A stretch of 64,000 nt of DNA from contig NZ_DASVGN010000036.1 of NCBI RefSeq assembly GCF_036379515.1, forward strand, positions 3,007 to 67,006, in the 5' to 3' direction. Below the pieces are notes generated by a model. It was given only the letters and a program-made list of their open reading frames with translations. It searched no databases and was not told the origin of the DNA. Position 1 is the first letter of the stretch. Each line of letters opens with the position of its first letter. Source of the DNA: Castellaniella sp. (GTDB lineage: Bacteria > Pseudomonadota > Gammaproteobacteria > Burkholderiales > Burkholderiaceae_B). Position numbers and translations under genes: made by a program. Shown here one piece after another: positions 3,040 through 45,862 of this stretch.

Positions 3040-3510
3040 ATGTCCCAAAATCCGCACGCAAATCTCGACACCCGGATGCTTGCCATCGCCCAACGCGCCG
3101 CCCGCGAAGGGATTGGCGCCCTGAGCCTGGGCGAAGCGCTTACCGCCGCCCTGGTGCTAGATCGCAACGACTGGCTGCAGGAGCGCGGCTACGGCATCGC
3201 CGACGCCCTGGACCGCATCGGCCCGGACTGGGCCGCACGCATCCCGGTCGTCGCCCGGCAGTTCCAGACCGATCTGGCACAGGCCCAGTTGCGATTTTCC
3301 TTTGAAATCCTGCCACGCAAGAGCGAGGGCGAAGGCTACCTGCTCCGCCTGCTCGACCAGGGCCAGGAAGTCGGCTGCGGGCACTTTCCCGCCCGTGGCC
3401 AATCCGTGCGCTTTGCCGACGACCAGTGCGCCTACGACGAAGCCCATGCAGCGGGCCTTGCCTGGCTGGAAGGCAAGCAGGCAGCCGCCCTTCCCGCCCT
3501 GCACCACTGA
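3040..3510 (+). CDS. Hypothetical protein
   Basis: 156-aa ORF with a good RBS (AAAGGAG about 7 nt upstream of ATG 3040). Codon usage matches the backbone. No family recognised. Confidence 0.55.
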   Translation: MSQNPHANLDTRMLAIAQRAAREGIGALSLGEALTAALVLDRNDWLQERGYGIADALDRIGPDWAARIPVVARQFQTDLAQAQLRFSFEILPRKSEGEGYLLRLLDQGQEVGCGHFPARGQSVRFADDQCAYDEAHAAGLAWLEGKQAAALPALHH

Positions 3511-3527
3511 ACCCATCAACATTGCCC

Positions 3528-4007
3528 ATGACCGATACCCCACCCGATACCGACCCCATCGCCCGGTACCGTGCCGTGCTGGAAGCCCTGGATCCGCGTC
3601 TGCGGATTGCCTCCAAATTGCGCGCGGTATTCCCCCTCATCGAAGCCCAGATCGACTCGGGCGTGCCACACGCCGCTGTGCTGGACGACCTGAAGGCTGC
3701 AGGCCTGCCGGTGCAAACCAGCACCTACACCACGACGCTCTACCGCTGGCGCAAGGCAAAGCGGCAGGCAGCCGATGAAACCGACCAACCGCGCGCATCC
3801 GTCGCCGAGCCCAGCGGCTCCCCCACTACCAAACCTTCGTCACCCCCGCTGCCAGCCATCCAGGGGCGCCCGAACGGTATCCAGACGCCCGGAGATCTAC
3901 GCAAGATCCGCGACATGCGCATCGACCTGGACGCCCTGCGCCGCGAAGGCCTGGCGAACCGCGCCAAGACCTCGCAAGACACCAAAACCCAGAACGACAA
4001 GGAATGA
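3528..4007 (+). CDS. Hypothetical protein (occupies the position of stbA upstream of the stbB-like gene)
   Basis: ATG 3528 begins MTDTPPDTDPIARYRAVLEAL... The C-terminal half is Pro/Ser-rich and basic. An stbA-like role is inferred from position only. Confidence 0.45.
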   Translation: MTDTPPDTDPIARYRAVLEALDPRLRIASKLRAVFPLIEAQIDSGVPHAAVLDDLKAAGLPVQTSTYTTTLYRWRKAKRQAADETDQPRASVAEPSGSPTTKPSSPPLPAIQGRPNGIQTPGDLRKIRDMRIDLDALRREGLANRAKTSQDTKTQNDKE

Positions 4008-4729: not shown

Positions 4730-5182
4730 ATGGACACTACGCCACAACCAGCCGCAGGCCTGGCTGCAAGTCCTGCTCGCACGAAGCTGGATCTGCTGTA
4801 CCACGATGTGCTGGGCGAAGTTGCCAGCCTCGTGGATCGGCTCGAAACGGTCAACGCAAGCCTGGAGACCGTCCAACAGCAGATCCAGGTCGTGGCCGAC
4901 ACCCAGCAGGTCCTGCCCCAACAACTGGCCCGGCATCTGGCCACCACCCTGGAAGCCACCGCCAAGCCGATCCACCAGCAGCATCAACAGACCATCCAGG
5001 CCATGCTGGACTCTACCAGCACCCGGCTGGATCACCTGGCCCAGGAGGCGGCCCAGTGGGCCCGCATCACGCACCAGTCGGCCCGGCGCATAGCACTCAT
5101 CGCCGCCGTCATTGGCGGTGCCGCCGGTGTGCTGGGCGGGCTGCTCGCTGGCCTGGCCCTGGGCCAGTGGCTCATCCCCTGA
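4730..5182 (+). CDS. Hypothetical coiled-coil protein with a C-terminal transmembrane anchor
   Basis: ATG 4730. The central region is Gln/Leu-rich and the C-terminus is hydrophobic (IALIAAVIGGAAGVLGGLLAGLALGQWLI). Confidence 0.5.
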   Translation: MDTTPQPAAGLAASPARTKLDLLYHDVLGEVASLVDRLETVNASLETVQQQIQVVADTQQVLPQQLARHLATTLEATAKPIHQQHQQTIQAMLDSTSTRLDHLAQEAAQWARITHQSARRIALIAAVIGGAAGVLGGLLAGLALGQWLIP

Positions 5183-5198
5183 TTGCACGAAGGCCCCC

Positions 5199-6797
5199 AT
5201 GTCTACCCTGATCTCCCCCATCACCCGGCGGCGCATTGCTGCCTTTTCCCTAGCGCTTTTTCCCATTGCGGCCTGGATGACCGCCGCCACCTACGGCAGC
5301 GGCATCGCCTGGCAAGACTGGAATCGCCAGATGGCCTGGCATTTCGTGAAGCTCACCCCTGGCTACCCCTTGCTTTACGGGGCGCTGGGCGTGGGCCTGA
5401 TGCTTGCCCTGGCCTTGATCCTCTTTATCGGCCGCACCGCGAAAACCGAGGGCTTCGAAGGCGCGGCCTACAAGCGTTTCGTGCGCGGCACCCGAATGAC
5501 CACGGCAAAGCACCTGGCAAAGCTCTGCACGGAACCTGGCAAACAGCAGATTGACGTGGCTGGCATCCCCATGCCCACGGCGAACGAAAATCTGCACCTG
5601 CTGGTGAGCGGTGCCACGGGGTCGGGCAAGTCGGTACTGCTGCGCAACATGGCGGCGTCCGTCCTGGCGCGCTCCCGCTGCCATCGATCTCATCTGCCGG
5701 GCCAGACACCTAAGCGAAATGACCGCATGATTGTCATCGACCCCAATGGCGATCTGCTGAGCAAATTCTGGCAACCCGGCGACGTGATCCTCAACCCCTA
5801 CGACGCCAGAACCCAGGGCTGGTCCTTCTTCAACGAAGTGCGTGCCGACTACGACTGGAAACGCCTGGCGCATTCCCTGGTGCCCATGAGCCAGGACAAG
5901 AACGCCGAGGAATGGAATGATTTCGGGCGGTTGCTGCTGCGCGAAACCGCAAAGAAGCTGCACCGGCTGCAAGGAACGGAAGCCAGCATCATGGATCTGT
6001 TCCGCCTCTGCACCATCGAAGACCCGAAGGTCTTGAAACAATTCCTGGATGGCACGCTGGCTGAATCCCTGTTCGTCGGCTCCAGCGAGGCCAGCAAGGC
6101 GCTGTCGTCCGCCCGATTCGTGCTCTCCAACAAGCTGTCGGAACACACCAGCATGAAGCCTGGCACCTTCTCCATCCGTGACTGGATGGACAGGCCGGAC
6201 GGCGGAAACCTGTACATCAACTGGCGCGAAGACATGATGAGTTTCATGCGGCCACTCGTGTCCTCCTGGGCCGATGTCTTCATCACCTCGATTCTGTCCA
6301 TGCCCGAAGGCACCGGCCGGCGCTGGTGGCTGTTCATCGACGAGCTGGCCAGCCTGGAAGCCCTACCGTCATTGGAGGCTGGCCTGACCAAGGGCCGCAA
6401 GAATGGGCTGCGCATCGTCGCAGGCCTGCAGAGCACATCCCAGCTGGAACACCTGTACGGCAGGACGATGGCCACCACCATCCGGGCGAGCTTTCGCAAT
6501 CTGGTCGTGCTGGGTGGATCCCGCACCGATCCGCAGACTGCCCGCGATATGAGCGAAAGCCTTGGCAAACACGAGGTCGAGCGGCCAAAATACAGCGTTA
6601 GCCGCAGCGTCGATCATCGGAATACGTCGGATAACATGGATCGGACGGTGGAGGATGCGGTTACGGCAGCGCAGATTCAAGCGCTGCCGGTGTTGGAAGG
6701 GTATGTGGCTCTGGCGGGGGATTTGCCGGTTGCGAGGGTTAAGGTGCCAATTCAGCAATTTGATGGGAACGCAGCGCCATTCCAGGATGGGAAATGA
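5199..6797 (+). CDS. virD4: Type IV coupling protein (VirD4/TrwB family)
   Basis: Two N-terminal TM segments, Walker A VSGATGSGKS, Walker B-like WWLFIDELASL, and a typical T4CP C-terminus (LPVLEGYVALAGDLPVARVKV). G+C and codon usage drop visibly over the last ~200 nt. Confidence 0.85.
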   Translation: MSTLISPITRRRIAAFSLALFPIAAWMTAATYGSGIAWQDWNRQMAWHFVKLTPGYPLLYGALGVGLMLALALILFIGRTAKTEGFEGAAYKRFVRGTRMTTAKHLAKLCTEPGKQQIDVAGIPMPTANENLHLLVSGATGSGKSVLLRNMAASVLARSRCHRSHLPGQTPKRNDRMIVIDPNGDLLSKFWQPGDVILNPYDARTQGWSFFNEVRADYDWKRLAHSLVPMSQDKNAEEWNDFGRLLLRETAKKLHRLQGTEASIMDLFRLCTIEDPKVLKQFLDGTLAESLFVGSSEASKALSSARFVLSNKLSEHTSMKPGTFSIRDWMDRPDGGNLYINWREDMMSFMRPLVSSWADVFITSILSMPEGTGRRWWLFIDELASLEALPSLEAGLTKGRKNGLRIVAGLQSTSQLEHLYGRTMATTIRASFRNLVVLGGSRTDPQTARDMSESLGKHEVERPKYSVSRSVDHRNTSDNMDRTVEDAVTAAQIQALPVLEGYVALAGDLPVARVKVPIQQFDGNAAPFQDGK

Positions 6798-6982: not shown

Positions 6983-7009
6983 ATCATATGCAGCCGTTCA
7001 GCATATGAT
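6983..7009. promoter_or_regulatory. Perfect 9-bp inverted repeat ATCATATGC-N9-GCATATGAT overlapping the first in-frame ATG of the helicase gene
   Basis: Arms at 6983-6991 and 7001-7009, read directly from the sequence. It could be an operator or RNA hairpin, and it casts doubt on ATG 7005 as the true start. Confidence 0.3.
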
Positions 7010-10000
7010 AAAAATAGACATAAAAAAACGTGGAAGGCCATGTATGCGTCAAAAGCTTAAGCTGAGCGTCTCACCAAGATCAGAATTTCTGACAAAATTT
7101 GGTTCGAGCATCAAGCAGGTGAAAGCCGCCGAGAAAAAAAATGGGACTCCTGCCTTACGCCTAGGTATCGATGAAAACGGCACTCAGCTCCTAATCAAGA
7201 CTTGGCCGCACGTGCCGGGCGCAGGTGATACGGACCTGCGTGAAATTTGGCACCATGAAATTCGTCAACTAAACCGTATCTTGGGAACACGTGGCGTGGG
7301 CGACATCATCGCTGAGCTCGAGGAGTCCCATGTTGACGAGCAGGGCTATCACCTGACGATTCGAACGGAACAGCGCCAGCCACTTGAGTCGATCTTAAGA
7401 AAAAACGAGCGGCTGCAGCACGCGACTCGCTTCAGTGTCAACGGTAGGCATCTCCTGTGGGCGAACTTTCTCCGTCTCGCCAAAGGTTTGGATTTACTGC
7501 ATCTGCAAGGTTTGCTGCACCGGAACCTCAATACTTGGTCAGTGCTGACCGCAGACACCAATGAACCCGATTTTCAGCTAACCGGGTTTGAGTGGTCCAT
7601 GCGCATCGTCGGGCTGAACGCATCCGATAAAAGTTACGCACCAGGCACGCAAGGCAGTCACTACTCGTTTTCACGCGATTGGCACGCCTTGGGTGAGCTA
7701 GCAGTCAAACTGTTCGACATCAATCCAGCACGGATAACGAACACCACAATTCCCATCTATGAAGTTGCTGAAAATTTGACGGCGGCAGAGGCACGCCTAA
7801 TTCGACAGTTGCTCCAAATACTGCCGACACAGCAACTCTATGGAAAGGTGGTCATTGCCGCCATCGAGAAAATCATCATGTCCTTGCAGGCCGCGATACA
7901 GCGTGAAGAACTGCTGTACCACCTTGTCGTCCCGGTCGTATCGAACAACACACTCGTGGACGATATCCGGGAAGCATCTGACTACCAGATCGAAGCCGGT
8001 GACGAGAACGCCCAGCTTGAATTTATTGAAAATGATCTTACAAATCCGACAGCCTTATTGCTGTCCGACGACCGACTCGCCATTCGTGGTTCCTTGCTCA
8101 CATACTACCTCCAAGATTTTCGTCGCACACGCGAAAAGATTCCGTCGAATTGGGAGGTCGCTTACTGCGCATCGACCAGCATCACCCGTAACTCCAGCCC
8201 GAACCCCGTCAATGCACGTCCGTTGCTCGCGAATGCTCTTCAGCTGACACCGCTGTCAAAGAGCAAAACGATGTTTCGCGGACGTGCACGCGGTACCTCG
8301 TGGAGGACACTGAGGGCACAACTCAAACCGACCCGTCAGGCGGATGCAAGAGCATCCAACCTCTACAGGGCTTTGGCATTGACGCAGATGCTGGACTATG
8401 CGTTGGCGGCTAGCGATGTGTTTCCAGTCAAATTGGTGGGCAATTCGCGCATCGACAATCACAGTGGGCAGCATCAGATCACGCTGGAGTCGCGACACGA
8501 CGATGAACTAGACAAACTGTCGCAGGCCTTGGAGTTAAAGGATCCACCAGCGACTCGCTTGCGCGAGATGCTTACGAGCGACAAAACAGCAGATGATCGT
8601 AAGACAAACTGGTGGTTAAGTTCAGTGCCAACGATTGGAGACCGGCAAGCTAATCCTAACGAGTGGCAATTTCGGCAGGAAGCCGCCGGGCCGCGCGGCG
8701 AACAGCAGTATCTCTTCATAGGCGAGAATCCTCCACCTGCTGGCCCGGAATTTTTCCTGGTCCCGAGCGATTCCACAGGCCGGGATTCTCAACTCGAACG
8801 ACGCATCAAAAGCCTCGCCGTGCTCGGCGAGCATCGCGAACTCTCACGCATGCTGATCGACCCACGCCGCCGCGTGATCGATAGCAACGAAAGTGTTAAT
8901 GTAGATGATGGCTTTTCGGAGCTGGACGCTTCCAAGCAAGTCGCACTCAGAAAGATCGTCGGGACCCTCCCACTTTTCATGCTGCAAGGCCCTCCCGGCG
9001 TCGGAAAGACGCGCCTAGTACGTGAGCTGGTGCGTCAACGCCTTGAAGTGGATCAGACGACACGCATGTTGCTAACTGCGCAAAGCCATCACGCAGTCGA
9101 TCACCTGTTGCACGAGGTCGTGGGTGCCTTGAGCCAGGAGGTCAGCGAGGACGCGGTGGTCATTCGCTGCACGACCCCCGACAGGATGGACACGCACAAC
9201 AGGTTCGATGTCTCCAATCAGACCAAGAATTTGTTGGCCGGATTGCGTACTAGCGCACTCTGCCGTGATGCGTCTGAAGCCCTGCAAAACAAAGTTCATT
9301 CATTGTGTGCGACGTTCGAACTGGAGGGCACGGAGGGCACCCAACAGGCAGCACCGAATGCCAAGCGTGCGCTGGAAAGTTTGATGCTGCAGTCGGCCAA
9401 CCTGCTTTTTGCCACCGCCAACTCTGGCGATATCCAGGGACTAATCGAAGATCGAAGTCAATTCGATTGGACAATCGTGGAGGAGGCCGGCAAAGCTACC
9501 GGAATGGAGTTAATTGCCCCAATGCTTCTATCGCCACGTAGGTTGATGATCGGGGATCACCGGCAATTACCCCCATTTGGCGAAGAACGAACGCTTTCTC
9601 TGCTTGAACGCCCCACCGCCGTTAAAAAAGCGTTAGAGATGATCGACCCGATAGTTGGCCGTGCCTTGCGCGGCAGCATTGTGGATGAGGTATTCAACGA
9701 CCTGCGTGTTCAAGATGATCAGTTTGATCAGAATGAATTCGTAAAACTTTGCCAAGATGCGGGAAATCTCTTTTCATTGTTCAGTTCGAGCATCCAGCAG
9801 GAATACAGTCGACTGGAAAGGAATCCAAAAAGCAGGCCAATTGCTGCCGCTTTGACACACCAGCATCGCATGCACCCGGCGATCGCAGCAGTGGTTTCGC
9901 ATGCCTTTTATGAGGATAAGCTTCTCACCGATCCACAGGCAGCGGAGCGATTCACCCAGCAACCGAGTCTGCTTGCATGGGAAGAGAGTGCGAAGTTGCC

Positions 10001-10595
10001 CGATCAGCCGATAATATGGGTCGACGTGCCCTGGGTGCAAAAAACAAAACTAATGAAGAACGGAGAATCATTTCCCCGATTTACAAACCAACTGGAGTTA
10101 CAAGCTTGTCGAAGAATTATTGAAGCAGCCCGTACAAGCACTTTTAATATGCCGACGATGGCCGTATTGTCACCCTACAGTCGCCAAGTGCGCGGGCTGG
10201 CGGAAAGCCTGGGAGAAGGTACGGCCCACTCTGAACTGTCGAAATTTCGGCTACCGCCTGGCCACAAGGCCTATTGCAATACTGTGGACTCGTTCCAGGG
10301 CAGCGAAGCCGACCTCGTGGTGATATCGCTAGTACGAAACAACGGCTATGGTGCCGTGCGCGCTGCGCTGGGGTTTTTAGCGGACGAACGTCGCATGAAC
10401 GTATTATTGAGTCGCGCGCGTTATCGCATGATAATTGTCGGAAGCCTCGATTTTCTTCGAGGGATCAGTTCCAATCCGCAAGATCGCAAGGAAGACATTG
10501 GCTTCATCAATAGGATTCTCGAGTTCTTTGACGACAAAAACCCCAATGAATTTGTTACCGTTGTACCTGTCGATCAACTGGGAGTGACGCCATGA
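7005..10595 (+). CDS. Kinase-like (degenerate) N-terminal domain fused to an Upf1-like SF1 helicase; MkoA-like component of a type I Mokosh-like system (alternative start ATG 7044 with GGAAGG RBS)
   Basis: Kinase-like landmarks: LLIK(65)TW, EIRQLNRIL, LLH(172)RNLNTWSVL, TGFE(193-196). SF1 helicase motifs: GPPGVGKT (nt 8988-9011), TAQSHHAVD, IVEEAGKA, LMIGDHRQLPPF, HQHRMHPAI, VDSFQGSEADLVVIS, NVLLSRARYRMIIVG. G+C is lower than the flanks. Confidence 0.85.
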   Translation: MIKIDIKKRGRPCMRQKLKLSVSPRSEFLTKFGSSIKQVKAAEKKNGTPALRLGIDENGTQLLIKTWPHVPGAGDTDLREIWHHEIRQLNRILGTRGVGDIIAELEESHVDEQGYHLTIRTEQRQPLESILRKNERLQHATRFSVNGRHLLWANFLRLAKGLDLLHLQGLLHRNLNTWSVLTADTNEPDFQLTGFEWSMRIVGLNASDKSYAPGTQGSHYSFSRDWHALGELAVKLFDINPARITNTTIPIYEVAENLTAAEARLIRQLLQILPTQQLYGKVVIAAIEKIIMSLQAAIQREELLYHLVVPVVSNNTLVDDIREASDYQIEAGDENAQLEFIENDLTNPTALLLSDDRLAIRGSLLTYYLQDFRRTREKIPSNWEVAYCASTSITRNSSPNPVNARPLLANALQLTPLSKSKTMFRGRARGTSWRTLRAQLKPTRQADARASNLYRALALTQMLDYALAASDVFPVKLVGNSRIDNHSGQHQITLESRHDDELDKLSQALELKDPPATRLREMLTSDKTADDRKTNWWLSSVPTIGDRQANPNEWQFRQEAAGPRGEQQYLFIGENPPPAGPEFFLVPSDSTGRDSQLERRIKSLAVLGEHRELSRMLIDPRRRVIDSNESVNVDDGFSELDASKQVALRKIVGTLPLFMLQGPPGVGKTRLVRELVRQRLEVDQTTRMLLTAQSHHAVDHLLHEVVGALSQEVSEDAVVIRCTTPDRMDTHNRFDVSNQTKNLLAGLRTSALCRDASEALQNKVHSLCATFELEGTEGTQQAAPNAKRALESLMLQSANLLFATANSGDIQGLIEDRSQFDWTIVEEAGKATGMELIAPMLLSPRRLMIGDHRQLPPFGEERTLSLLERPTAVKKALEMIDPIVGRALRGSIVDEVFNDLRVQDDQFDQNEFVKLCQDAGNLFSLFSSSIQQEYSRLERNPKSRPIAAALTHQHRMHPAIAAVVSHAFYEDKLLTDPQAAERFTQQPSLLAWEESAKLPDQPIIWVDVPWVQKTKLMKNGESFPRFTNQLELQACRRIIEAARTSTFNMPTMAVLSPYSRQVRGLAESLGEGTAHSELSKFRLPPGHKAYCNTVDSFQGSEADLVVISLVRNNGYGAVRAALGFLADERRMNVLLSRARYRMIIVGSLDFLRGISSNPQDRKEDIGFINRILEFFDDKNPNEFVTVVPVDQLGVTP

Positions 10596-12361
10596 AAACC
10601 GTGAAAGTATTTCTTCCGGTCCTCAGAGGGCGGATTTCTTTTATTGTGGATCGAGGTCGCCAGTGGAGCGTGGTAGAGCACCTACTTCTGGACGCGCTCA
10701 CGCGTCGCGAATGGTCCACAAGTGCGCTGGCAGAACACGGCAATTTGCCGCGGCGAGTCGTCATTGAAGCACTTGTGCGATTGATGCGTGCGGGGTGGGT
10801 CGAACTCAGCGTGGAAAAAGGCGACGTCAATTTTCGTGCGACCGAAATTGGCAAGGTGGCCGCTACGCACAATGAATTACCGAAGCTATCGGATCTTCAG
10901 AAGCGCCCAACCAACTATATTCTCGACATGGTATGTGGCGAGATTTTTCGCAACAGGGATTTGCTGACGCAATCCAAAGAGGAAATTAAGAAAATACACG
11001 ATCCCGGGAATTGCGTGTGGGTAGAACCGCGTGATTGGCACACCGAGGTGGACGTCAATGAAGCTCTGCAGGTTCTGCTGGACAATGACGAAACTTTCGT
11101 GACCGGACAACCCGGCGGGATCTTTCGACGCTGGATCATGGTGGTAGTCCGCGGAGGTCGAGTCGTATCTGGTTTACCGGAAAATCGCACCCTGGACAAA
11201 CTTCGTGCGGTCGTGCTGCAAGCAGCAGATGACGCAGAGGACGAAAACGCTGTTCATGTGACACCGACGGACGAACATGAACTCGAGCGCATCCAACTGC
11301 CCCAGGCAGCTGTCTGGGACATTGGCTTTAGCCTGAAGGATCTCGTGCTGGGCGGTCCGGCGCATCGCAAGAGCCTGCTGCATATGCTGGAGACTGCTAA
11401 GACGCACCTCTATATACATTCAACATTTATTAGCGCTGAACGAGTATTAAATCTCTTGACACCCATTCAGGATGCGATCAACCGTGGAGTGCATATTCAT
11501 ATCTTCTGGGGACAAAACGAGGAATTTGAAGAGCTCTCCACGACACGCACCGCTATCGGCAATCTTCGCAAACACCCTCAGATTCAGGCGCTGGCTGAGC
11601 ACCTGACGTTTCACCCACATTCAACAGGATCGCATGCCAAATTATTGCTGGCCGATGCCGGAACCAACGGTGAATATATAGCGGTTTTGGGCTCGTGCAA
11701 TTGGCTCACCAGTGGCTTCGAGTCCTATGAGGCGTCTGTGGTTCTGCGCGACCCTAGGATGGTGGACGAAGTCGTGCGCTGCTTTGGGCGCTTGGTTTGT
11801 ATGCATGACGGGTTGTGGTCAGAGCTGGCGGGGGACGTCGTCCGGATCTCAGACAGTTTGAAGAATGCTCCTTTGCCCAGGGTGACTGGACAAGGTAGCA
11901 TCATCTCCGGCGCCCAGCACAACCATCTGGTGCTATGCGCACGCGATGAGGCTCGCCAGTCCATCCTTCTTGCGAGCCACCGGCTTGGTGTGGCGGCAGG
12001 TCCCGGTATTCTCGCGCCGTTGCAGAGCGCGGCTGCTGCAATGCCACAGCTTGCAGTCGAAGTCTACTATTGTAGAAAAACTGCCCCCGTTCGCAAGAAA
12101 GATGAACGGCACCTCACGGAAGCGGCTTTAAGCTCAGGCGTAAGCTTGACGCCGATCCAGTCACCACGGGTTCATGCCAAGATACTGGTTTGGGACGACA
12201 ATAATGCAGTGATTACTTCCTTGAACTGGCTCTCCGCCGATCAGACTCAAAGCTCGAGCCTTTCCGAAATCGGAGTTCATCTAAGGGTCGCGGGCATTGG
12301 CCGGTATATTTCGGAGCATCTGCGGGCCGAGATTCAATTAGCCGAAACCGCTGGGTCCTAG
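10592..12361 (+). CDS. Double-HKD phospholipase-D-family nuclease with a winged-helix-like N-terminus; MkoB-like component
   Basis: The start overlaps the upstream stop (ATGA at 10592-10595). HKD motif 1 is HAKLLLAD...GSCNW (nt 11633-11656). HKD motif 2 is HAKILVWD...TSLNW (nt 12173-12196). Both fit HxK(x)4D. Confidence 0.85.
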   Translation: MKTVKVFLPVLRGRISFIVDRGRQWSVVEHLLLDALTRREWSTSALAEHGNLPRRVVIEALVRLMRAGWVELSVEKGDVNFRATEIGKVAATHNELPKLSDLQKRPTNYILDMVCGEIFRNRDLLTQSKEEIKKIHDPGNCVWVEPRDWHTEVDVNEALQVLLDNDETFVTGQPGGIFRRWIMVVVRGGRVVSGLPENRTLDKLRAVVLQAADDAEDENAVHVTPTDEHELERIQLPQAAVWDIGFSLKDLVLGGPAHRKSLLHMLETAKTHLYIHSTFISAERVLNLLTPIQDAINRGVHIHIFWGQNEEFEELSTTRTAIGNLRKHPQIQALAEHLTFHPHSTGSHAKLLLADAGTNGEYIAVLGSCNWLTSGFESYEASVVLRDPRMVDEVVRCFGRLVCMHDGLWSELAGDVVRISDSLKNAPLPRVTGQGSIISGAQHNHLVLCARDEARQSILLASHRLGVAAGPGILAPLQSAAAAMPQLAVEVYYCRKTAPVRKKDERHLTEAALSSGVSLTPIQSPRVHAKILVWDDNNAVITSLNWLSADQTQSSSLSEIGVHLRVAGIGRYISEHLRAEIQLAETAGS

Positions 12362-12608: not shown

Positions 12609-15509
12609 ATGATCTCGCATAGCCAGATCTATCGGGCCCGCGCGGCCCTTGCGACCCATTACTATGCCGACCAGGCCGACGACTACTACAGCCGCGATGG
12701 CAGCGCCGCAACCTGGCAGGGCGATGGTGCCCGGCGTCTGGGTGCCGTCGGCGCCATCGATCCCGCCCGGTTCAAAGCCATGCTTCAGGGCGATTTTGGC
12801 TACGGCATTACGGCCAGTCAATCCGTACGCAAGGACGCCAAGGCCCGCGCGGCGCTGGACCTGACCTTCGGCGCTCCCAAAAGCATCACGCTACAGGCAC
12901 TGATAGGTGGCGACGAGCGCCTGATCCAGGCGAACGATGATGCCGTAACCACGGCCCTGACTTACGTTGAGCAGCACCTGGCCATGGGTCGCAGGAAGGA
13001 AAGCGGCAAGTCGCGGGTGGAGCACACGGGCAATCTCATCATCGCCAAGTTTCGCCACGAAACGGCCCGGCCCACCGAGGATGCCGCGCCGGACCCGCAT
13101 CTGCACATCCACGCGCTGCTCATGAACCTGACGCAGCGAGCTGACGGTCAGTGGGTGGCACTCTCGAACGAACAGATCTTCCAGCTGCTGCGGGTGACAG
13201 ACTCCATCTACCAGGCAACGCTAGAGCGCAACGTCCGGGCGCTGGGCTACGCCGTGCGCCACGAGAAGAACCATATTGAGCTTGCCCACATCAGCCGGGA
13301 GCAGATCGAATTCTTCAGCAAGCGCAGCGCGGGCATCACAGCGGAGCTCGCCGCACGCGGCACCAGCCGCGACCAGGCTCCGCACGCACTGCGCCAGGGC
13401 ATCACCCTTGCCCACCGGCAGCAGAAGACTCAAGCCTACAGCCGGGCCGGGCTTCAACAGGAATGGCAGGCATCGGCCCAAGCCATCGGCATGCGGTTTG
13501 ACCAGACGGGCCTGCAGGCGACCATCCAGCCTCAGCAGGACACCAGCAAAGATTCCGATCTGGTCGCCCAGGCATCGCTGGACTGGGCGATCCAGCATTT
13601 GGCCGAGCGTGAATCCGTCATGCCGCTGGCCGATCTGCTGCAAAGCGCCGTGCGCCACGCGGGTGGCCATACGGATGTCACCGCCATCCAGTCGGCCATC
13701 CACGCACGGGTACAGGCGGGGATTCTCATCCAGGAAGCCGCGCACTATCGCAGCACCCAGGACATGAAGGCCGCGCCCATGACCCGCGACGGTTGGGCGA
13801 CTGAGGTCGTGCGCCTGCGCGGGGTCTCGCATGACGCCGCCCTGCAACTGGTTGATCAGGCCATCACCCAAGGACGGCTCTTGATGGAAAGCCCGCGCTA
13901 CGCCACACGCAAGGCCTATGAGGCAGAATCCCGGATCCTGACTGCTGAAGCCAGCGGCCGCAGCACCTGGCAGGCCCCCATCACCAGCACCGTGGCCGAA
14001 TCCGGGCTGGATGAACGCCTGACCCCAGGCCAGCGCGAAGCCGTGATGCTGATTGCCAGCGACACCGACCAGATCGTCGGCATCCAGGGCCTGGCCGGTA
14101 CGGGCAAATCCTTTGCCCTGCAAAACGCCCAGGCCATCCTGCAGCAACAGGGCCACAGCCTGGTAGCGCTCGCCCCCTATGGTGGCATGGTACGGAATCT
14201 GCGCAAGGACGGCGTGCCCGCCAATACCGTGGCCTCGGTTCTGACTGCCCGTGACAAGCGCCCCTTCACCACCCAGCTGGGCCCGCAGACCGTGGTGGTG
14301 ATCGACGAAGCCGGAGTCGTGCCCGTGCGCCAGATGGACAGACTGCTGGCGCTCATCCAGCCCACCGGCGCAAAGGTGGTACTGCTGGGCGACACGGCCC
14401 AGACCAAGGCCATCGAGGCCGGCCGCGCCTTTGCCATGCTGCAGGAACACGGCATGAAGACCGTGCTCATGGGCGACATCCAGCGCCAGCGCTCTGAACG
14501 GCTGCGCCAGGCCGTGCAGTTGGCCGCCCATGGCCATGCCAGCCGCTCCCTGCCCTTGCTGGATCGGGTGCTGACCATTCCAGATCAGTTCGCCGTCGAT
14601 GAACATGGTCAGAAGGCGCGCGACAGCTCGGCCCGGTATGAGGCCATCGCCCAAGCCTATGTGGGGGTGCCCACCGATCAGCAGGCCGCCACCATCGTCG
14701 TGACCGGCACCAATGCCTCGCGCCAGGCGATCAATGCCCGTATCCACGCCCTGCGCGGCCTGGAAGGCAAGGGCCAGCACTGCCAGCTACTGTCCCGCCA
14801 CGACACGACACGGGCCGAACGCAGTGTCGCCCGGTATTACACCGTGGGCGACATCGTCGTGCCGGAACGCGATTACCAGTGCGGCCTGAAGCGCGGCGAA
14901 ATGTACCGGGTGACCAGCATCCCCCGTCATGACCGCATCACGGTGCAGGCGGTGGACTCCAGCACGTTGAAGCCTGAACTCATTGAAATCATCCCTCGGA
15001 CCATGGGCAAGCTCTCGGTCTACCACCTGAACGAATCCGAGCTGTCCATGGGCGACCAGGTACGCATCACGCGCAACGATGCCCAGCATGACCTGGTTAA
15101 CGGCCAACTGGCGAAGGTCGTCGCCATCGAGGCCGCCACCGTCACCATCGAGACAGGCGATCGCCACATCACCCTGCCTACCGACCGACCACTACATCTG
15201 GACTATGCGTACACCACCACGGCACACAGCGCTCAGGGTCTGACCTGCGACCGCGTGCTGTACAACGCGGAAAGTTTCAGCCGCACCACGGCCCAGGATA
15301 CCTACTACGTCAGCATCTCGCGCGAGCGGCATAAGGTCATGGTGTTCACGGATGATGCCGACAAGCTGCCCGAACGGGTGGACCGACTGGGGTTCAAGGG
15401 GCTGGCGCATGACCTGGCCCAGGCGCACGTCGAAAGCCCTGCTCCACACCTGCACCGACCTGATGTGACACTGGAACGGGAGGCAGAATCCTCAATGGAG
15501 ATCAGCTGA
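12609..15509 (+). CDS. trwC: MOBF-family relaxase/helicase (TrwC/TraI-like)
   Basis: The N-terminus (HYYADQADDYYSRDGSAATWQGDGARRLG) and the His triad (HETARPTEDAAPDPHLHIH) are typical of TrwC relaxases. The RecD-like helicase part has Walker A GLAGTGKSF. Length is 966 aa. GGAG RBS upstream. Confidence 0.9.
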   Translation: MISHSQIYRARAALATHYYADQADDYYSRDGSAATWQGDGARRLGAVGAIDPARFKAMLQGDFGYGITASQSVRKDAKARAALDLTFGAPKSITLQALIGGDERLIQANDDAVTTALTYVEQHLAMGRRKESGKSRVEHTGNLIIAKFRHETARPTEDAAPDPHLHIHALLMNLTQRADGQWVALSNEQIFQLLRVTDSIYQATLERNVRALGYAVRHEKNHIELAHISREQIEFFSKRSAGITAELAARGTSRDQAPHALRQGITLAHRQQKTQAYSRAGLQQEWQASAQAIGMRFDQTGLQATIQPQQDTSKDSDLVAQASLDWAIQHLAERESVMPLADLLQSAVRHAGGHTDVTAIQSAIHARVQAGILIQEAAHYRSTQDMKAAPMTRDGWATEVVRLRGVSHDAALQLVDQAITQGRLLMESPRYATRKAYEAESRILTAEASGRSTWQAPITSTVAESGLDERLTPGQREAVMLIASDTDQIVGIQGLAGTGKSFALQNAQAILQQQGHSLVALAPYGGMVRNLRKDGVPANTVASVLTARDKRPFTTQLGPQTVVVIDEAGVVPVRQMDRLLALIQPTGAKVVLLGDTAQTKAIEAGRAFAMLQEHGMKTVLMGDIQRQRSERLRQAVQLAAHGHASRSLPLLDRVLTIPDQFAVDEHGQKARDSSARYEAIAQAYVGVPTDQQAATIVVTGTNASRQAINARIHALRGLEGKGQHCQLLSRHDTTRAERSVARYYTVGDIVVPERDYQCGLKRGEMYRVTSIPRHDRITVQAVDSSTLKPELIEIIPRTMGKLSVYHLNESELSMGDQVRITRNDAQHDLVNGQLAKVVAIEAATVTIETGDRHITLPTDRPLHLDYAYTTTAHSAQGLTCDRVLYNAESFSRTTAQDTYYVSISRERHKVMVFTDDADKLPERVDRLGFKGLAHDLAQAHVESPAPHLHRPDVTLEREAESSMEIS

Positions 15510-15850
15510 CGCCATTCCGCAGCAAAACCGTCTGCCGGACGCCCGCCGGGTGTCCCCAAACTGCATCCGTCTTGTCGCTGATTTGCCCGGCAACTGTCAC
15601 CATATCGTCTTGTCTCCGTATGCTGCCCGTATCCACAGCGTACCCAGCATGTCCCCAAGGTGAAATTTCCTGTCCTGGTCTGAATGTCTACGCGCCATTC
15701 GGCCACAGTCGTGGCCGCCATTCCTCCCGTCGGATCAATGGCTTGCGCCATTCCAGTGCCCTATCTGTCCTACATTACCAGAACCAGCCCGTTCCGGGCA
15801 AGCCATTGATCCGCAACGCCTTTCCTCACCCCGCCAGGGGTGCGTCATGT
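15510..15850 (+). other. Candidate oriT region (low confidence)
   Basis: Non-coding DNA directly 3' of the relaxase gene. GCCATTC occurs at least four times. A perfect 15-bp inverted repeat GGATCAATGGCTTGC has arms at 15732-15746 and 15798-15812. CGTCTTGTC occurs twice (15569, 15606), and the second copy, GTCTTGTCT, resembles the IncW-type nic core GTATTGTCT as recalled. Confidence 0.3.
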
Positions 15851-16243
15851 GTGGGACGTTTAAGGCCACAAATGAGCGGCAGTGAATTTGGGGACTGAAC
15901 GGCCCAGCCTGGCCGGAAACCGGGCAGGCGGCGTCACAGCACAGGGCCCCAGGCGAAGCCTGGGAACGAACCAGGCATCAGCACCCGGTAGGCCACAGGA
16001 CAGATCCAGGATGGCCAGCATCAGGCCCACCAGCAGCAGCCCGGAAAACGCAACAAGGCCCGGACAATGCCGGGCCAATGTGCAATGCAGGATCTGGACG
16101 GGATCACCCGGCCAGGATCACGCAGTTTCTCAAAACGAAATATCCGATATTTCCAGCGCTGCAGAGCCGGCCGTCGGGGTAGTGGCCGCAGTTCGGCCGC
16201 TGCACCCCTTCGTCCTACCTACCGCTGCCTTCGCCTCCCTCGC

Positions 16244-16552
16244 CTAGCCGCCAGGCAGGCCCCCACAGCCCATCGGGCAGCAGTCGGGCTCCAAGCCGTG
16301 GCTGCATAGCCCTTGGGACTTCAGCTCCCGGTCCAGCTGGGCCAGGCCGTCTCTATCCAGATACCCGGCATCCTCTGCCATTGAAATGGCCTCGGCCCTG
16401 AATTCGTGCGGTACATCGCCCAGTAAAACCTCTATGTCGAAGCTGAAATTACGCTGAAAAACTTCGTAGGCGCAGCCGCAGCGGGCAATATGGCGGTTGC
16501 TGGCTGCGGTCACCTTGGCACCCCATGCGGCCCCGAACTCGTCTTTCGTCAT
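16244..16552 (-). CDS. Hypothetical small protein with a Cys-rich C-terminus
   Basis: 102-aa ORF, ATG 16552 with AGGAGA about 7 nt upstream. It ends ...CSHGLEPDCCPMGCGG. It is the first gene after the candidate oriT and is preceded by repeat copy A. Confidence 0.55.
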   Translation of the reverse strand: MTKDEFGAAWGAKVTAASNRHIARCGCAYEVFQRNFSFDIEVLLGDVPHEFRAEAISMAEDAGYLDRDGLAQLDRELKSQGLCSHGLEPDCCPMGCGGLPGG

Positions 16553-16584
16553 GACTATCTCCTGAGAATTTGAAGTGGCTTTCC

Positions 16585-16935
16585 TGCTAACCGGATTCGA
16601 AGATTCTTGAGCCGGCTGGTAAAACCGGTGCCCGGGGATTGACCCTGGCTCCCGGTGTTGCCGCCGTCTTTCGTGAGTTCCGTCGCCGTGCCGTCGAGGA
16701 CCATGGAGCGCAGGTGCGGCGCGGGAGCGTGAAATAAATGGGGGGACCCGCTTGCGGGGGGAGGCCGTTTATGCCGCGAAAGCCCGCAGAGCGCCTGCGC
16801 GTAGTGGTACATGTCGGCGTCTTGGGCGGCGGGACTCACGAAAGACGGAGATCCGGCAGCTGCGAGGCTCTATCCCCGGATACCAGCCGCGCGGCGAGCG
16901 CCCCCAGCCGCAGCCAGGCTGCGGCTCAAACTCGG
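16585..16935 (+). repeat. Structured intergenic repeat, copy A (long imperfect hairpin)
   Basis: Shares the blocks CCGGATyCGAAGATTCTTGAGCCGG, GCCGCCGTCTTyCGTGAGTTCCGTCGCCGTGCCG and GCCGCGCGGCGAGCGCCCC with copy B and, more loosely, copy C. The arm 16664-16678 (CCGTCTTTCGTGAGT) is perfectly complementary to 16834-16848. Confidence 0.75.
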
Positions 16936-17040
16936 TGGCCAGCTGGCCTCATAGGATTGGCCGACGGCGCCATCTCCTCTGTCGCATGACATGTGGTGAC
17001 CACAGCCCGGCCAGGCCTACGCGCCTGACCGGGTTCTCTG

Positions 17041-17844
17041 TCAGGCGTCTGCGGCGTCGAGGTGCGCAATAACCTGCTTGGCGGCCCACGTCGCATTTTC
17101 GGTCAGCTGACGCACCCAGGCGCTGCGCATCGGACTCCAGCGAAAGCCGCAACGCTTCAGCACGTCGCGGGTGTCCTTGGCCGGTTTGCCGTCAAACAGG
17201 AACATGGCGCGGTTTTCCTGCGGATCTTCGCGATAGGTGTAGCCGTCTCCTGCCTGCTCGGTCTCGGTGCGCTCAGCCACACGCTGCAACTCCTTGATGC
17301 GGGCCATGATGCGGTGGATGTTGGCGTTGTTGTTCTGCAGCTGGAACGGGACAAAGCCGATGCGGTTCATATAGTCCGGGGTCACGAGTTCGCGGGCGCG
17401 TTCCGCGTAGGTGAGGCCGGAATCCACCAGAGCGGCCACCTGGGCATCGGCCCCAGCCTTGGCATGGCGACGCAAAATGGCGTTGATGGCCTTCATCGTT
17501 TCCTGAATGGCCTGCAGGCCGGCCAGCTTCGCCTGCAGTTTCTCGATGGCAGCTGGGTCGTCGCTGGAAATCCCGCCTTTGCCCACGGCGGCGGCCTTGT
17601 CGGCATAGTGCTCAGCCTTCTTCTGCAACTCGAAGGACTTTTCAAAGCATTGGCTGATTCGTTCCCGGTACCGGCGGTCGGATCGTTCCGAATGATGCCC
17701 CACCAGGATGGGCTGGCCCATGGGGATGGCATCGGCCATGCGGCTGGCCTGGGACGCGACCGCATCAGATTGTGCATGTGCCTGCCCTGCTCGTTCTTCA
17801 TAGCGGGCCTTGCGCGCTGCCTGCTTGGCTTCGTAGGTGTTCAT
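17041..17844 (-). CDS. DUF3560-like protein
   Basis: ATG 17844 with GGAGAA RBS. The sequence MNTYEAKQAARKARYEERA...PILVGHHSERSDRRYRERI...FRWSPMRSAWVRQ matches my recollection of the DUF3560 family common on plasmids and ICEs. The ORF-track start at 18081 runs into repeat B. Confidence 0.7.
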   Translation of the reverse strand: MNTYEAKQAARKARYEERAGQAHAQSDAVASQASRMADAIPMGQPILVGHHSERSDRRYRERISQCFEKSFELQKKAEHYADKAAAVGKGGISSDDPAAIEKLQAKLAGLQAIQETMKAINAILRRHAKAGADAQVAALVDSGLTYAERARELVTPDYMNRIGFVPFQLQNNNANIHRIMARIKELQRVAERTETEQAGDGYTYREDPQENRAMFLFDGKPAKDTRDVLKRCGFRWSPMRSAWVRQLTENATWAAKQVIAHLDAADA

Positions 17845-17879
17845 GGTCTGATTCTCCAAAACAAGGGTTGAACTGCTTT

Positions 17880-18240
17880 TCAGCTGACCGGATCCGAAGA
17901 TTCTTGAGCCGGAACGTAAATCCGCTGTGTGGGGTCTACGCTGGTTTCCCGGTCTTGCCGCCGTCTTCCGTGAGTTCCGTCGCCGTGCCGATCTGGACCA
18001 CGCAGCGCCGAACGGAAAGGGGCAGGCACGCAAGCCGCAGCCCGAAGCCGCAGGTGCAGGGACCGGGTGAGCACCTGGCAAAGCGCACCCCTTGCAGAGA
18101 GAAGCGAAAGTGGTACACGTCGGTGGTTTAGGCGGCGGGAGTCACGCAAGACGAAATAGCGGCCCGATCCAGGCGATGACCCTGCACGGCAGCCGCGCGG
18201 CGAGCGCCCCTAGCCCCGCACCCTGGGGCTCTGACTGGGC
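17880..18240 (+). repeat. Structured intergenic repeat, copy B
   Basis: Same conserved blocks as copy A. The arms 17961-17975 and 18140-18154 are complementary with 3 mismatches. Confidence 0.75.
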
Positions 18241-18445
18241 CATGGCCCGTATTCCAGCAGTGACCTTTGCCAGCGGCACCAGACGACAAGGCCGACTGGG
18301 GCACCCTGACCCGGTCGGCCTTGTTGCTTCATCCGTATCTGGCAAAACCGACTTCTCCCGGCTCCTGCTTCATGATCAGCCGATCATGCTCACATCCCCG
18401 CCTGCAGTCGGGCGGGGCGGATCCCCCGCCCTGCCCTGGTTCCTC

Positions 18446-18976
18446 CTACACTTGCCCGCGTTCGGCCAGCGATGTGGTCTCTGTTGCACTCACCACGATA
18501 TGGTCCAGTATCCGGACATCGATCAGAGCCAGCGCCTGTTTCAGTTGCCGTGTCAGATGCACGTCGGCAGCGCTGGGTTCCGCGATCCCTGATGGATGGT
18601 TATGTGCCATGAAAAGCGCAGCCGCATTCAGGCGGAGTGCCGTTTTGACGATCTCGCGCGGGTAGATGTTCGCCTGGCTCAGCGTCCCCATGGCCTGTTC
18701 GATGTAGCGGATAGGCCGCAGCTGTGCATCCAGGTATAGGAAAGCGGCGCATTCGTGGCCAAGCCCGGCCAGTTTGGACTGAAAAAATGACCTTACCCGC
18801 TGGGGGTTACCCAGTGCATTGTCCATGGAAATCAGGCTAACGGCGGCTTCGCGGCCTGCCGCCAGAATCTGGCTATCCGTGGCAGGCTTGTAGCGTCCGC
18901 TGGGGCTGCGCACATACAAAGGGTGTGCGTCGTTCATGTTGTCATAGCTCAGCGCGGCGGTGCTGTTCGTGTTCAT
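18446..18976 (-). CDS. radC: RadC-like JAB/MPN-domain protein
   Basis: JAMM motif AALFMAHNHPSGIAEPSAADVHLT and C-terminus ...ILDHIVV, typical of RadC-family proteins. Confidence 0.85.
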   Translation of the reverse strand: MNTNSTAALSYDNMNDAHPLYVRSPSGRYKPATDSQILAAGREAAVSLISMDNALGNPQRVRSFFQSKLAGLGHECAAFLYLDAQLRPIRYIEQAMGTLSQANIYPREIVKTALRLNAAALFMAHNHPSGIAEPSAADVHLTRQLKQALALIDVRILDHIVVSATETTSLAERGQV

Positions 18977-18999
18977 GAGTGCTTTCTCCTTTCGGGGTT

Positions 19000-19345
19000 A
19001 ACCGGCTACCGGGGCCGAAGATTCCGAGCCTTTCGTAGGTTTTGCGGTGTCCGCAGACCTACCTCTGGCCCGGAGTGCCACCGTTGCCGTGAGTTCGTCG
19101 CCTTGCCGCGCTGGATTACGAAGGGACGACCGGAAAGGGGCGGGCACGCAAGCCGCAGCCCGAAGGAGAACGAAGAGAAACGAAGAGAAACGAAGGGACC
19201 GGGTGAGTACCCGACAACGCGCACCCCTTGCAGAAAGGAGCACAGTGATACAGTCGGCGTTTTGGGCGGCGAGATCAGGGCAATGGCTGCCCGCGCCCGT
19301 GGGAATGGACTGCGGATGCCGGCCGCGCGGCGAGCGCTGCTACCG
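19000..19345 (+). repeat. Structured intergenic repeat, copy C (most diverged; 10-nt tandem expansion in the apical region)
   Basis: Shares the GCCGAAGATTC, GCCGTGAGTTCGTCGCC, GGCACGCAAGCCGCAGCCCGAAG, GCGCACCCCTTGCAG and GCCGCGCGGCGAGCGC blocks with copies A and B. About four tandem copies of CGAAGAGAAA lie at 19161-19200. Confidence 0.7.
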
Positions 19346-19473
19346 GACGAAGGACGGTCCGACTTAATGCGCTGTGATATGTGTCCCGCCGCTCACCTGG
19401 CATCTCCGTAGGAAGGCCAAGCAAGACACGAGCGAGAAAACCGACGACGGCTGACGATGAGAGTAAAGCTGCC

Positions 19474-19698
19474 TTACGTTTGCGCGCAACTACAACTATT
19501 GCGACTCGCCTGTATGGGCGGACAAGGCACATCCCCCCAAGAACAGAACACACAGCAGTCGCCCGGCTTGGGCCGCAGCAACGCCTCGCATTGACTGCAC
19601 CGGTAGAAGAAGAGGCACGCATCGGTAGGCATAGTTTCCTTCTGACGGTGGCCGCAACGCGGACAGGCAAGGACGGATTCGAGGATCACGTTATTCAT
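19474..19698 (-). CDS. GDCCVxC-domain small metal-binding protein
   Basis: 74 aa with CPRCGH, CSQCE and the GDCCVFCSWG motif. It lies directly downstream of merP. Confidence 0.7.
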   Translation of the reverse strand: MNNVILESVLACPRCGHRQKETMPTDACLFFYRCSQCEALLRPKPGDCCVFCSWGDVPCPPIQASRNSCSCAQT

Positions 19699-19705
19699 GG
19701 TGAGA

Positions 19706-45653: not shown

Positions 45654-45684
45654 ACGCACGACACAAAACCTGTAGAATCCCGCC

Positions 45685-45855
45685 TTACCGTCATAGGGGA
45701 GTAGCCGCGCTTTCTTCAAAGCGGCTTGCGTCAACATACTTGGCCGACAGGTCATGGCGCAAGCGGTTCTCGAACTTGGCAAGACCTTTGACTACGATGC
45801 TTCCGGTTGGGCCGGAGGGCGTCGCAGTCGAATGTCTGTCATCCGGCCCGGGAAC
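45685..45855 (+). ncRNA. Second yybP-ykoY (Mn2+) riboswitch candidate
   Basis: GGGGAGTAG at 45696-45704, hairpin CCGCGCTTT...AAAGCGG, GCTTGCG...CGCAAGC enclosing TTGGCCGACAGG, and then CTTGGCAAGACC. It lies directly upstream of a GDT1/UPF0016 gene. Confidence 0.6.
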
Positions 45856-45862
45856 CTGTCTC

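Follow-up and report, generated by a model that had tools for sequence, protein, structure and literature searches.

Repeats and adjoining genes

The stretch of DNA analysed here, called the window, comprises 64,000 nucleotides (nt) from Castellaniella sp. (NZ_DASVGN010000036.1, positions 3,007-67,006; all coordinates are within the window unless stated) and holds part of a MOBF/TrwC-type conjugative element. It carries three copies, A, B and C, of a long hairpin-forming repeat, each ahead of a gene on the minus strand. Judged from the sequence, these repeats are probably single-stranded DNA (ssDNA) promoters of the leading region of this element.

An earlier, sequence-only reading of the window had described three co-oriented conserved copies, each 5' of a minus-strand gene, and this arrangement is recovered both by MAFFT alignment (mean column identity 72%) and by a profile hidden Markov model (HMM) of the wider family. 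The nhmmer matches span 16575-16919 for copy A (E 5e-62), 17870-18223 for copy B (E 1e-79) and 18991-19359 for copy C (E 2e-75), with no further significant copy elsewhere in the window. Read off the sequence, elements A and B occupy 16575-16926 and 17870-18232 of the plus strand, and element C occupies 18991-19362 of the same strand. The 16-nt terminal block GCCGCGCGGCGAGCGC is found at 16886, 18192 and 19322 and nowhere else, three occurrences against a shuffle expectation of 0.41.

Each copy stops 41-52 nt short of the ATG of its minus-strand gene. Behind element A lies a Cys-rich open reading frame (ORF) of 102 amino acids (aa) at 16244-16552, taken from the ORF list, which has no Pfam match and is the first annotated gene past the predicted nick. 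Its Shine-Dalgarno (SD) sequence and ATG follow 47 nt past the GAATCTT block of element A, and no homologue of it was found behind any other element of the set. Element B precedes a DUF3560 gene (17041-17844, minus strand; Pfam DUF3560, 8e-37) and element C a RadC-like JAB-domain gene (18446-18976, minus strand; Pfam RadC, 5e-38).

On the plus strand an element begins with a 5' block, GCTGACCGGnnyCsAAGATTCnGAGCC, followed by a hairpin of ~270-290 nt. The hairpin arms include the conserved TGAGTTCGTCGCC with its partner, and the apex is one of two alternative cores. After the hairpin come the block GCCGCGCGGCGAGCGCC and a small hairpin of variable sequence. Element A has a type II apex, with the 5' block at ~16592-16614, the hairpin at ~16615-16885, the type II core at 16715-16820 (HMM E 9e-21), a -10-like heptamer TACATGT with a 1-nt insertion at 16808-16814, the 3' block at 16886-16901 and the small 3' hairpin at ~16906-16926. 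Elements B and C have a type I apex, which resembles the ssp2 promoter discussed below. In element B the 5' block lies at ~17885-17911, the hairpin at ~17912-18191 and the type I core at 18004-18127 (HMM E 1.6e-27); TTGCAG (18092-18097), a 16-nt spacer with TG at 18111-18112 and TACACGT (18114-18120, again with a 1-nt insertion) are followed by the 3' block at 18192-18207 and the small hairpin at ~18211-18231. Element C has its 5' block at ~19006-19031, the hairpin at ~19032-19321, the type I core at 19122-19261 (HMM E 2e-27), TTGCAG at 19228-19233, a 15-nt spacer with TG at 19246-19247, TACAGT at 19249-19254, the 3' block at 19322-19337 and the small hairpin at ~19341-19362.

Most structural details of the sequence-only reading stand. 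All three plus strands fold as ssDNA into one long imperfect hairpin, and direct reading of the sequence finds 16664-16678 to be the exact reverse complement of 16834-16848 in copy A and the arm pairing proposed for copy B to contain three mismatches as described. The pairing proposed for copy C, 19090-19103 with 19273-19286, was misplaced, the true 5' partner of 19273-19286 lying at ~19079-19093. A constant distance of 315-330 nt between first and last blocks also needs revision, as the full span measures 302-320 nt; the starts of AAGATTC and of the last block lie 286, 295 and 304 nt apart in A, B and C, respectively. The 10-nt tandem expansion noticed in copy C was located by TRF at 19169-19195, in the apical loop, as 2.7 copies of AACGAAGAGA. 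A Castellaniella hirudinis copy (L099 629-993) that is otherwise near-identical to copy C has one 10-nt unit fewer, and the apical loop thus tolerates a change in length.

Predicted transfer origin and transferred strand

Between the relaxase gene and the repeats, the plus strand reads CACCCC-gcca-GGGGTG and then CGTCATGTGT/GG (15826-15858), an inverted repeat and nic motif that form the predicted core of the origin of transfer (oriT). This layout agrees with that of the R388 TrwC nic site, which consists of a 5-nt inverted repeat with a 4-nt loop, 9 nt, the nick and a purine (PMC4176350). Twenty related loci conserve the motif; in each it shares the strand of the elements and lies 5' to them, and in one of these loci the inverted repeat carries a compensatory change. 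By analogy, the nick is predicted between T15852 and G15853 of the plus strand.

The position of the nic motif sets the direction of transfer. As the motif is on the plus strand, this would be the transferred (T) strand, with higher coordinates entering first, and a nick at 15852/15853 would place the repeats within the first 3.5 kb to enter, that is, in the leading region. Since the three genes lie on the minus strand, the T strand would be their template. The predicted oriT core lies downstream of the relaxase gene, unlike that of R388, where oriT lies upstream of the transfer operon.

A family of repeats in Burkholderiales

One genome per species was scanned with a pattern for the 5' half of the element only (AAGATTC, 55-80 nt, TGAGTTC, 0-1 nt, GTCGCC). 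Seventy-four scan matches also bear the 3' block, which was not part of the search, 253-353 nt downstream and mostly at 280-306 nt; in one truncated copy this distance is 182 nt. In the loci fetched around such copies, the profile HMM gave 113 matches, more diverged ones included. The family comprises ~100 distinct elements. Counts given below refer to the 74 scan matches, the 113 HMM matches, 97 unique members, 92 DNA folds, 77 members scored for TTG or an alignment of 68 sequences.

The hosts are mainly Alcaligenaceae (Castellaniella, Pusillimonas, Bordetella, Achromobacter, Alcaligenes), Comamonadaceae, Burkholderiaceae and Rhodocyclales, and members were also found in a few metagenome-assembled genomes labelled Gammaproteobacteria. 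Most copies lie within large chromosomal contigs, so that the elements of these hosts are probably integrative and conjugative elements (ICEs); two copies are on plasmids. A blastn search of PLSDB with the whole region returned mostly the DUF3560 genes of PromA-type plasmids and not the elements.

The relation of the repeat to the gene behind it is regular. A leading region has several copies, one per gene or operon, and among the HMM matches listed the copies share orientation in each multi-copy locus seen. Read in the sense of the gene, an SD sequence and ATG follow 26-65 nt past the GAATCTT block in nearly all copies. The genes concerned encode RadC (36 of the 74 scan matches), DUF3560 proteins (17, the window copy counted) and ParB-like proteins of ~650 aa (5), more rarely DUF932 (3), SSB (2) or DUF6573 (1) proteins, to which the Cys-rich ORF of the window is added.

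Three members of the family stand beside other features. One with an internal deletion (L059 820-1050, 253 nt) precedes an SSB gene cut to 68 aa and looks like a decayed copy. In Comamonas testosteroni a diverged element has two identical tRNA genes (L021 2606-2899) ~1 kb away, which may be an ICE attachment site. An Achromobacter copy is adjoined by an IS3 frameshift pseudoknot of the ALIL type (L047 1151-1267).

Conservation of the hairpin

A structure of 84 pairs was built from self-alignments of each sequence and scored on the 68 sequences. Pairing was found in 78.8% of cells, compared with 35-42% when the partners were slid, and 45 of the 84 pairs show compensatory changes. The covariation score is 0.221, a value that slid versions do not approach (at most 0.078) and that none of 500 shuffles reached. 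The structure was derived from the same 68 sequences and some bias is therefore expected, although the margin is still large. Co-variation of paired positions, which had been proposed from copies A and C of the window, thus extends to the whole alignment. RNAalifold run on the MAFFT alignment recovered the core arm helix alone, because that alignment is not structural.

The ssDNA fold of copy A has a predicted energy of -102.6 kcal/mol (z -4.5 against shuffles), and many relatives are likewise far more stable than their own shuffles.

A promoter-like motif on the gene-distal arm

The plus strand of the gene-distal arm, read from loop to base, carries the conserved sequence G-Y-G-R-T-A-C-A-G-T-C-G-G-C-G. 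The hexamer TACAGT is present in 68 of the 97 unique members, and 92 of them fit nAnnnT. A TTG lies 15-17 nt upstream of the hexamer in 49 of 77 members and almost nowhere else between 5 and 40 nt, and TG stands ahead of the hexamer in 36 of 77. Copy C fits this -35/-10 pattern fully; A and B carry a 7-nt variant of the hexamer, in A with no TTG ahead of it.

The hexamer is unevenly paired. In the alignment, A(-11) is opposite G in 41 members and opposite A in 24, with a Watson-Crick pair in only 2 of 68; T(-7) is opposite G in 35, T in 24 and C in 3, with a Watson-Crick pair in 3 of 68. The other four positions are paired in 48-57 of the 68 sequences. Minimum-energy DNA folds leave A(-11) unpaired in 82 of 92 members and pair positions -15 to -12 and -10 to -8 in 70-90%. 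A(-11) and T(-7) are the two bases that sigma-70 flips out of the duplex.

Owing to the mismatches at A(-11) and T(-7), neither base is present in the mirror hexamer on the gene-sense strand. In a relaxed promoter scan the distal-arm site was found in 44 of 68 elements and was the only conserved one in the element, gene-sense sites reaching at most 14 of 68. Neither the element nor the sequence ahead of it showed a conserved promoter-like site on the gene-sense strand, and no consensus double-strand promoter was found facing the three genes in the window.

Comparison with ssDNA promoters of the F plasmid

The start sites of class 2 and class 3 ssDNA promoters were mapped by 5' rapid amplification of cDNA ends (RACE) in recipients of pESBL (PMC12672017). 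The F plasmid carries homologous class 2 and 3 promoters, and ssp2 has been tested on F as a replication roadblock (PMC12672017; bioRxiv 10.64898/2026.01.09.698686). The class 2 promoter, ssp2, precedes ardB/klcA-type antirestriction genes in plasmids of the IncF and IncI groups (Wen et al. 2025, Fraikin et al. 2026) and is reported just upstream of the antirestriction gene of F (PMC12672017; PMC13478746; bioRxiv 10.64898/2026.01.09.698686). Class 3 is reported upstream of M.EcoGIX in pESBL and of its methylase homologue in F.

The HMM of the type I core, present in B and C, matches the F T strand upstream of the antirestriction gene (L123 4522-4659, E 5e-4) and two candidates of Samuel et al., Frpo*3 (E 1.8e-6) and Frpo*1 (E 7e-6). 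At the ssp2 position F reads GGGACCGGGTGA..GGCGAAGCGTACCCTTGCAT, 15 nt and TAAGAT, the 15 nt separating TTGCAT from TAAGAT. In the fold of F, a 3x3 internal loop of the gene-distal arm contains A(-11) to G(-9), a geometry identical to that of the family. Both ssp2 and the type I members of the family are long G+C-rich hairpins of the T strand upstream of a leading-region gene. They share the core GGAAGCCGCAGCC...GGGACCGGGTGA...GGCGAAGCGnACCCTTGCA, 15-16 nt and TAnnnT on the gene-distal arm, and A(-11) is unpaired in both. Beyond the ~90 nt of core that can be aligned, the arms and flanks are unrelated. The family, unlike ssp2, has its own scaffold, in which the 5' and 3' blocks are conserved and a small hairpin is added; it precedes RadC, DUF3560, ParB-like, DUF932 and SSB genes instead of ardB, and is found in Burkholderiales, mostly in chromosomal contigs, as opposed to IncF/IncI plasmids. 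Similarity to the ssp2 core is remote and confined to the core in B and C, and was not found in element A.

Element A has a counterpart elsewhere in F. The type II core HMM matches the F T strand ~100 nt upstream of the methylase gene (L123 1997-2063, E 1.3e-3), where copy A and the F sequence share exact blocks of 12 and 14 nt, GACCGTGGAATA and TATGCCGCGAAAGC, which flank a variable hairpin and follow one another in the same order in both. The match is short, the likeness to class 3 draws on the reported position, and the rest of the hairpin differs. In contrast to class 3, the type II core of the family sits in the same scaffold as the ssp2-like core. The similarities to F emerged only once the two apex types were modelled separately.

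Class 1 promoters resemble the family in arrangement. Like the repeats described here, Frpo1 and Frpo2 of F and ssi1-3 of ColIb-P9 are T-strand hairpins of ~300 nt, tens of nt from a gene start, followed by small G+C-rich hairpins and repeated ahead of leading genes that include ssb, ParB-like and DUF932 genes. SSB, ParB-like and DUF932 genes also lie downstream of Frpo1 and Frpo2 in F, and the proposed mechanism is alike (PMC9849209). A search of the F leading region with the full-length family HMM gave no match even at E up to 10, so that no kinship in sequence with Frpo is detectable.

Other hairpins are also read by host RNA polymerase. The minus-strand origin of f1/M13, ssoA/ssoU of rolling-circle plasmids and the single-strand origin (sso) of ICEBs1 are orientation-specific ssDNA hairpins that mimic a promoter. 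In contrast to the function proposed for the family, their products are short primers for DNA synthesis, and none of them is placed so as to drive a gene downstream. An attC-like nature of the elements was also considered; they are far longer than known attC sites, and no integron-type core sites or integrase were noticed, with no search aimed at either.

Matches to the two cores also occur at other places. On the F T strand there is a second type-I-like core ~1 kb before the first annotated gene of the stretch compared (L123 722-782, minus, E 3.7e-3), and the experimentally defined ssiE (L123 13502-13538, minus) gives a weak match to the type II core (E 9e-3); either site could be a further ssDNA signal in F. 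In the sul2-strA region of an E. coli plasmid (L124) both core types stand back-to-back on opposite strands (3407-3468, minus; 3487-3587, plus), ~300 nt ahead of a gene for a MobV relaxase. By itself, the type I core (79% over 71 nt) was found in ~25 other plasmids from E. coli, Vibrio, Photobacterium, Providencia and Actinobacillus, in one of which (L001 2496-2587) it lies upstream of floR. Cores of this kind may be unrecognised ssDNA promoter or priming modules of small mobilisable plasmids.

Proposed mechanism

Taken together, the three repeats are probably ssDNA promoters of the leading region, and the family is best read, from sequence comparison, as a branch, in Burkholderiales, of the ssDNA promoters of classes 2 and 3 on a family-specific scaffold. 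This branch is previously undescribed; in the literature searched, no paper linked ssDNA promoters with Burkholderiales hosts. The sequence-only reading had likewise proposed ssDNA promoters or single-strand initiation (ssi) signals, a view now supported by the strand of oriT, the covariation, the plus-strand motif and the matches to F hairpins; the part of it that invoked Frpo does not extend to kinship in sequence.

In the proposed mechanism, the relaxase would nick the plus strand at ~15852/15853, and this strand would enter the recipient 5' end first, led by 15853 onward, with the relaxase gene (12609-15509) arriving last. While still single-stranded, each repeat would fold into an imperfect hairpin of ~270-290 nt, its distal (3') arm bearing TTG, a 15-17-nt spacer, often TG, and TACAGT, and its proximal (5') arm pairing as template. 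With A(-11) unpaired opposite G or A and T(-7) mostly in non-Watson-Crick apposition, this fold would present a partly pre-opened -10 to the sigma-70 polymerase of the host. ssDNA-specific activity and polymerase binding at the repeats are both implied by this model. RNA synthesis would begin in the internal loop just below the -10, predicted near 16688 of the minus strand for element A, near 17985 for element B and near 19103 for element C, and the RNA would exit via the base of the hairpin into the Cys-rich ORF, DUF3560 and RadC genes with leaders of ~125-140 nt.

The switch in such a system would be replication of the entering strand. As the motif lies on the plus-strand arm, it can drive the genes only with that strand folded. 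In the duplex form it would face away from the gene, with no -10 towards it, and expression should stop. The same hairpins may also prime complementary-strand synthesis or slow it, as do Frpo and ssp2.

Evidence against and alternative explanations

Several observations weigh against the repeats being ssDNA promoters. In the motif, T(-7) is Watson-Crick paired in about half of the members in minimum-energy folds, and a 1-nt insertion in the hexamer (TACAtGT in A, TACAcGT in B; 12 of 68 aligned members) removes the canonical T(-7). Type II elements, including element A, mostly lack a TTG at -35. The promoter model assigns no function to the conserved flanking blocks, the arm sequence TGAGTTCGTCGCC or the small 3' hairpin. 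Matches in F are short, with E of only 1e-3 to 1e-6 in small search spaces, and a scan of Frpo1 and Frpo2 for consensus -35 and -10 elements gave no clean match.

The folding strand presents a similar difficulty. Copies B (z -0.8) and C (z 0.05) are no more stable than their shuffles. The plus strand folds more stably than the minus strand in all 68 elements, an advantage that is mostly reproduced by shuffles of the same composition and is thus mostly due to an excess of G over C; GC skew is only mildly higher within the elements than in their surroundings. Isolated mismatches are G:T in 308 cases and A:C in 77 (4:1), where base composition predicts an estimated ~3:1, and the G:T count made on the structure's own pair list is biased, as G:T was accepted in building that list. 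At mostly-Watson-Crick pairs the counts are 75 G:T and 54 A:C cells, a difference that is not significant. Evidence on the folding strand from pair types and composition-controlled energies is therefore weak.

The alternative that survives best, while still unlikely, is that the hairpins are ssi/sso-like signals which recruit polymerase or primase, or stall complementary-strand synthesis, with gene expression secondary. Frpo RNA serves as a primer for DNA synthesis and ssp2 acts as a roadblock to replication (bioRxiv 10.64898/2026.01.09.698686), the stems of the family are long, G+C-rich and stable, the type II core bears its weak likeness to ssiE (E 9e-3), and the neighbourhood of the MobV relaxase gene, where both cores stand back-to-back in small sul2 plasmids, is a plausible place for priming. 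Against this, the elements keep a fixed distance of 26-65 nt to a gene start that has an SD sequence, and a single primer site would suffice where a leading region has one copy per gene or operon. A priming or roadblock role likely coexists with transcription rather than competing with it.

Somewhat less probable again is a structured 5' leader or intergenic RNA within ordinary minus-strand transcripts, which would control stability, processing or translation. Being a palindrome, the sequence can fold as either strand, and for the three copies the minus-sense RNA still reaches a predicted -103 to -131 kcal/mol; pair-type counts do not tell the strands apart, and the conserved block by the SD sequence could be a translational operator. 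The radC RNA motif and other Rfam motifs share with the family a neighbourhood of radC, antirestriction and ssb-type genes. A search of Rfam (4227 families, the radC motif included), a check that the sequence-only reading had named, gave no match over the elements at the gathering threshold or at E up to 10, and none over the elements in 16 related loci. The absence of a conserved promoter-like site on the gene-sense strand, within the element or ahead of it, also counts against an RNA leader. Such a leader further leaves unexplained the asymmetric -10, in which A and T of the distal arm face non-complementary bases, and the resemblance of the cores to the ssp2 hairpin of F and to the hairpin at the reported class 3 position.

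Least probable of all is a module that acts as duplex DNA (repressor operators, recombination cassettes shuffling leading genes or a repeat like a miniature inverted-repeat transposable element, MITE), with the hairpin incidental: long stretches are conserved as sequence and not only as pairing (AAGATTC, TGAGTTCGTCGCC, GCGCGGCGAGCGC), and one scaffold with interchangeable apices before different genes looks like cassette shuffling, but compensatory changes keep the pairing across subfamilies and the copies keep a single orientation and context, in the leading region before a gene start, with no copy seen in an unrelated setting. MITE-like spread through varied contexts and in both orientations was not observed, nearly all copies preceding a gene start of leading-region type.

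If the repeats are ssDNA promoters, a more elaborate and tentative proposal is that they form a modular system. In this proposal, which is possible but doubtful, a conserved hairpin scaffold of ~290 nt, bordered by blocks of its own, with two interchangeable cores, ssp2-like and class-3-like, would be reused before every early gene of many Burkholderiales ICEs. The ~100 variants would then reveal a design rule in which A(-11) is unpaired, T(-7) non-Watson-Crick and the rest of the -10 paired, and the conserved blocks might be sites for a further single-strand factor acting in priming, as a roadblock or as a regulator.

Neighbouring genes and cargo

Upstream of the predicted oriT the window carries further genes of the conjugative element. 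Along the plus strand, a VirB11-like ATPase gene (246-1541) comes before a TrwB-type coupling protein gene (5112-6797), and the TrwC-type (MOBF) relaxase-helicase gene (12609-15509, plus strand) has Pfam matches to TrwC (1.8e-71) and AAA_30 (1e-44). Between the coupling-protein and relaxase genes lie a helicase gene (1196 aa, AAA_11/AAA_12) and a PLD-nuclease gene (589 aa) with a 4-nt overlap (7005-12361, plus strand), which together look like a defence or anti-defence pair.

Past element C the leading-region array stops abruptly, and merP and merT follow on the minus strand (19363-19705). The cargo looks as if inserted straight into the leading region at this point, and mercury and copper resistance genes continue from ~19700 onward. 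Within this metal-resistance cargo there is a full-length manganese (yybP-ykoY) riboswitch (45684-45857, plus strand, 116 bits), which overlaps a long ORF (45071-46441) and lies ~2 kb upstream of a P-type ATPase gene (47923-49896).

Implications

ssDNA promoters govern the first minutes of plasmid establishment, when anti-defence functions, SOS suppression and a supply of SSB are required. Demonstrations of such promoters are so far confined to the IncF and IncI plasmids of E. coli. If the interpretation given here is correct, the mechanism would extend past enterobacterial plasmids to chromosomal conjugative elements of Burkholderiales, among which the element of the window also bears mercury and copper resistance cargo. 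It would also mark RadC, DUF3560, DUF932 and DUF6573 as early establishment genes. Finally, the alignment would be deep enough to yield rules (unpaired A(-11), TTG spacing and swappable cores) that could be used to find such promoters elsewhere.

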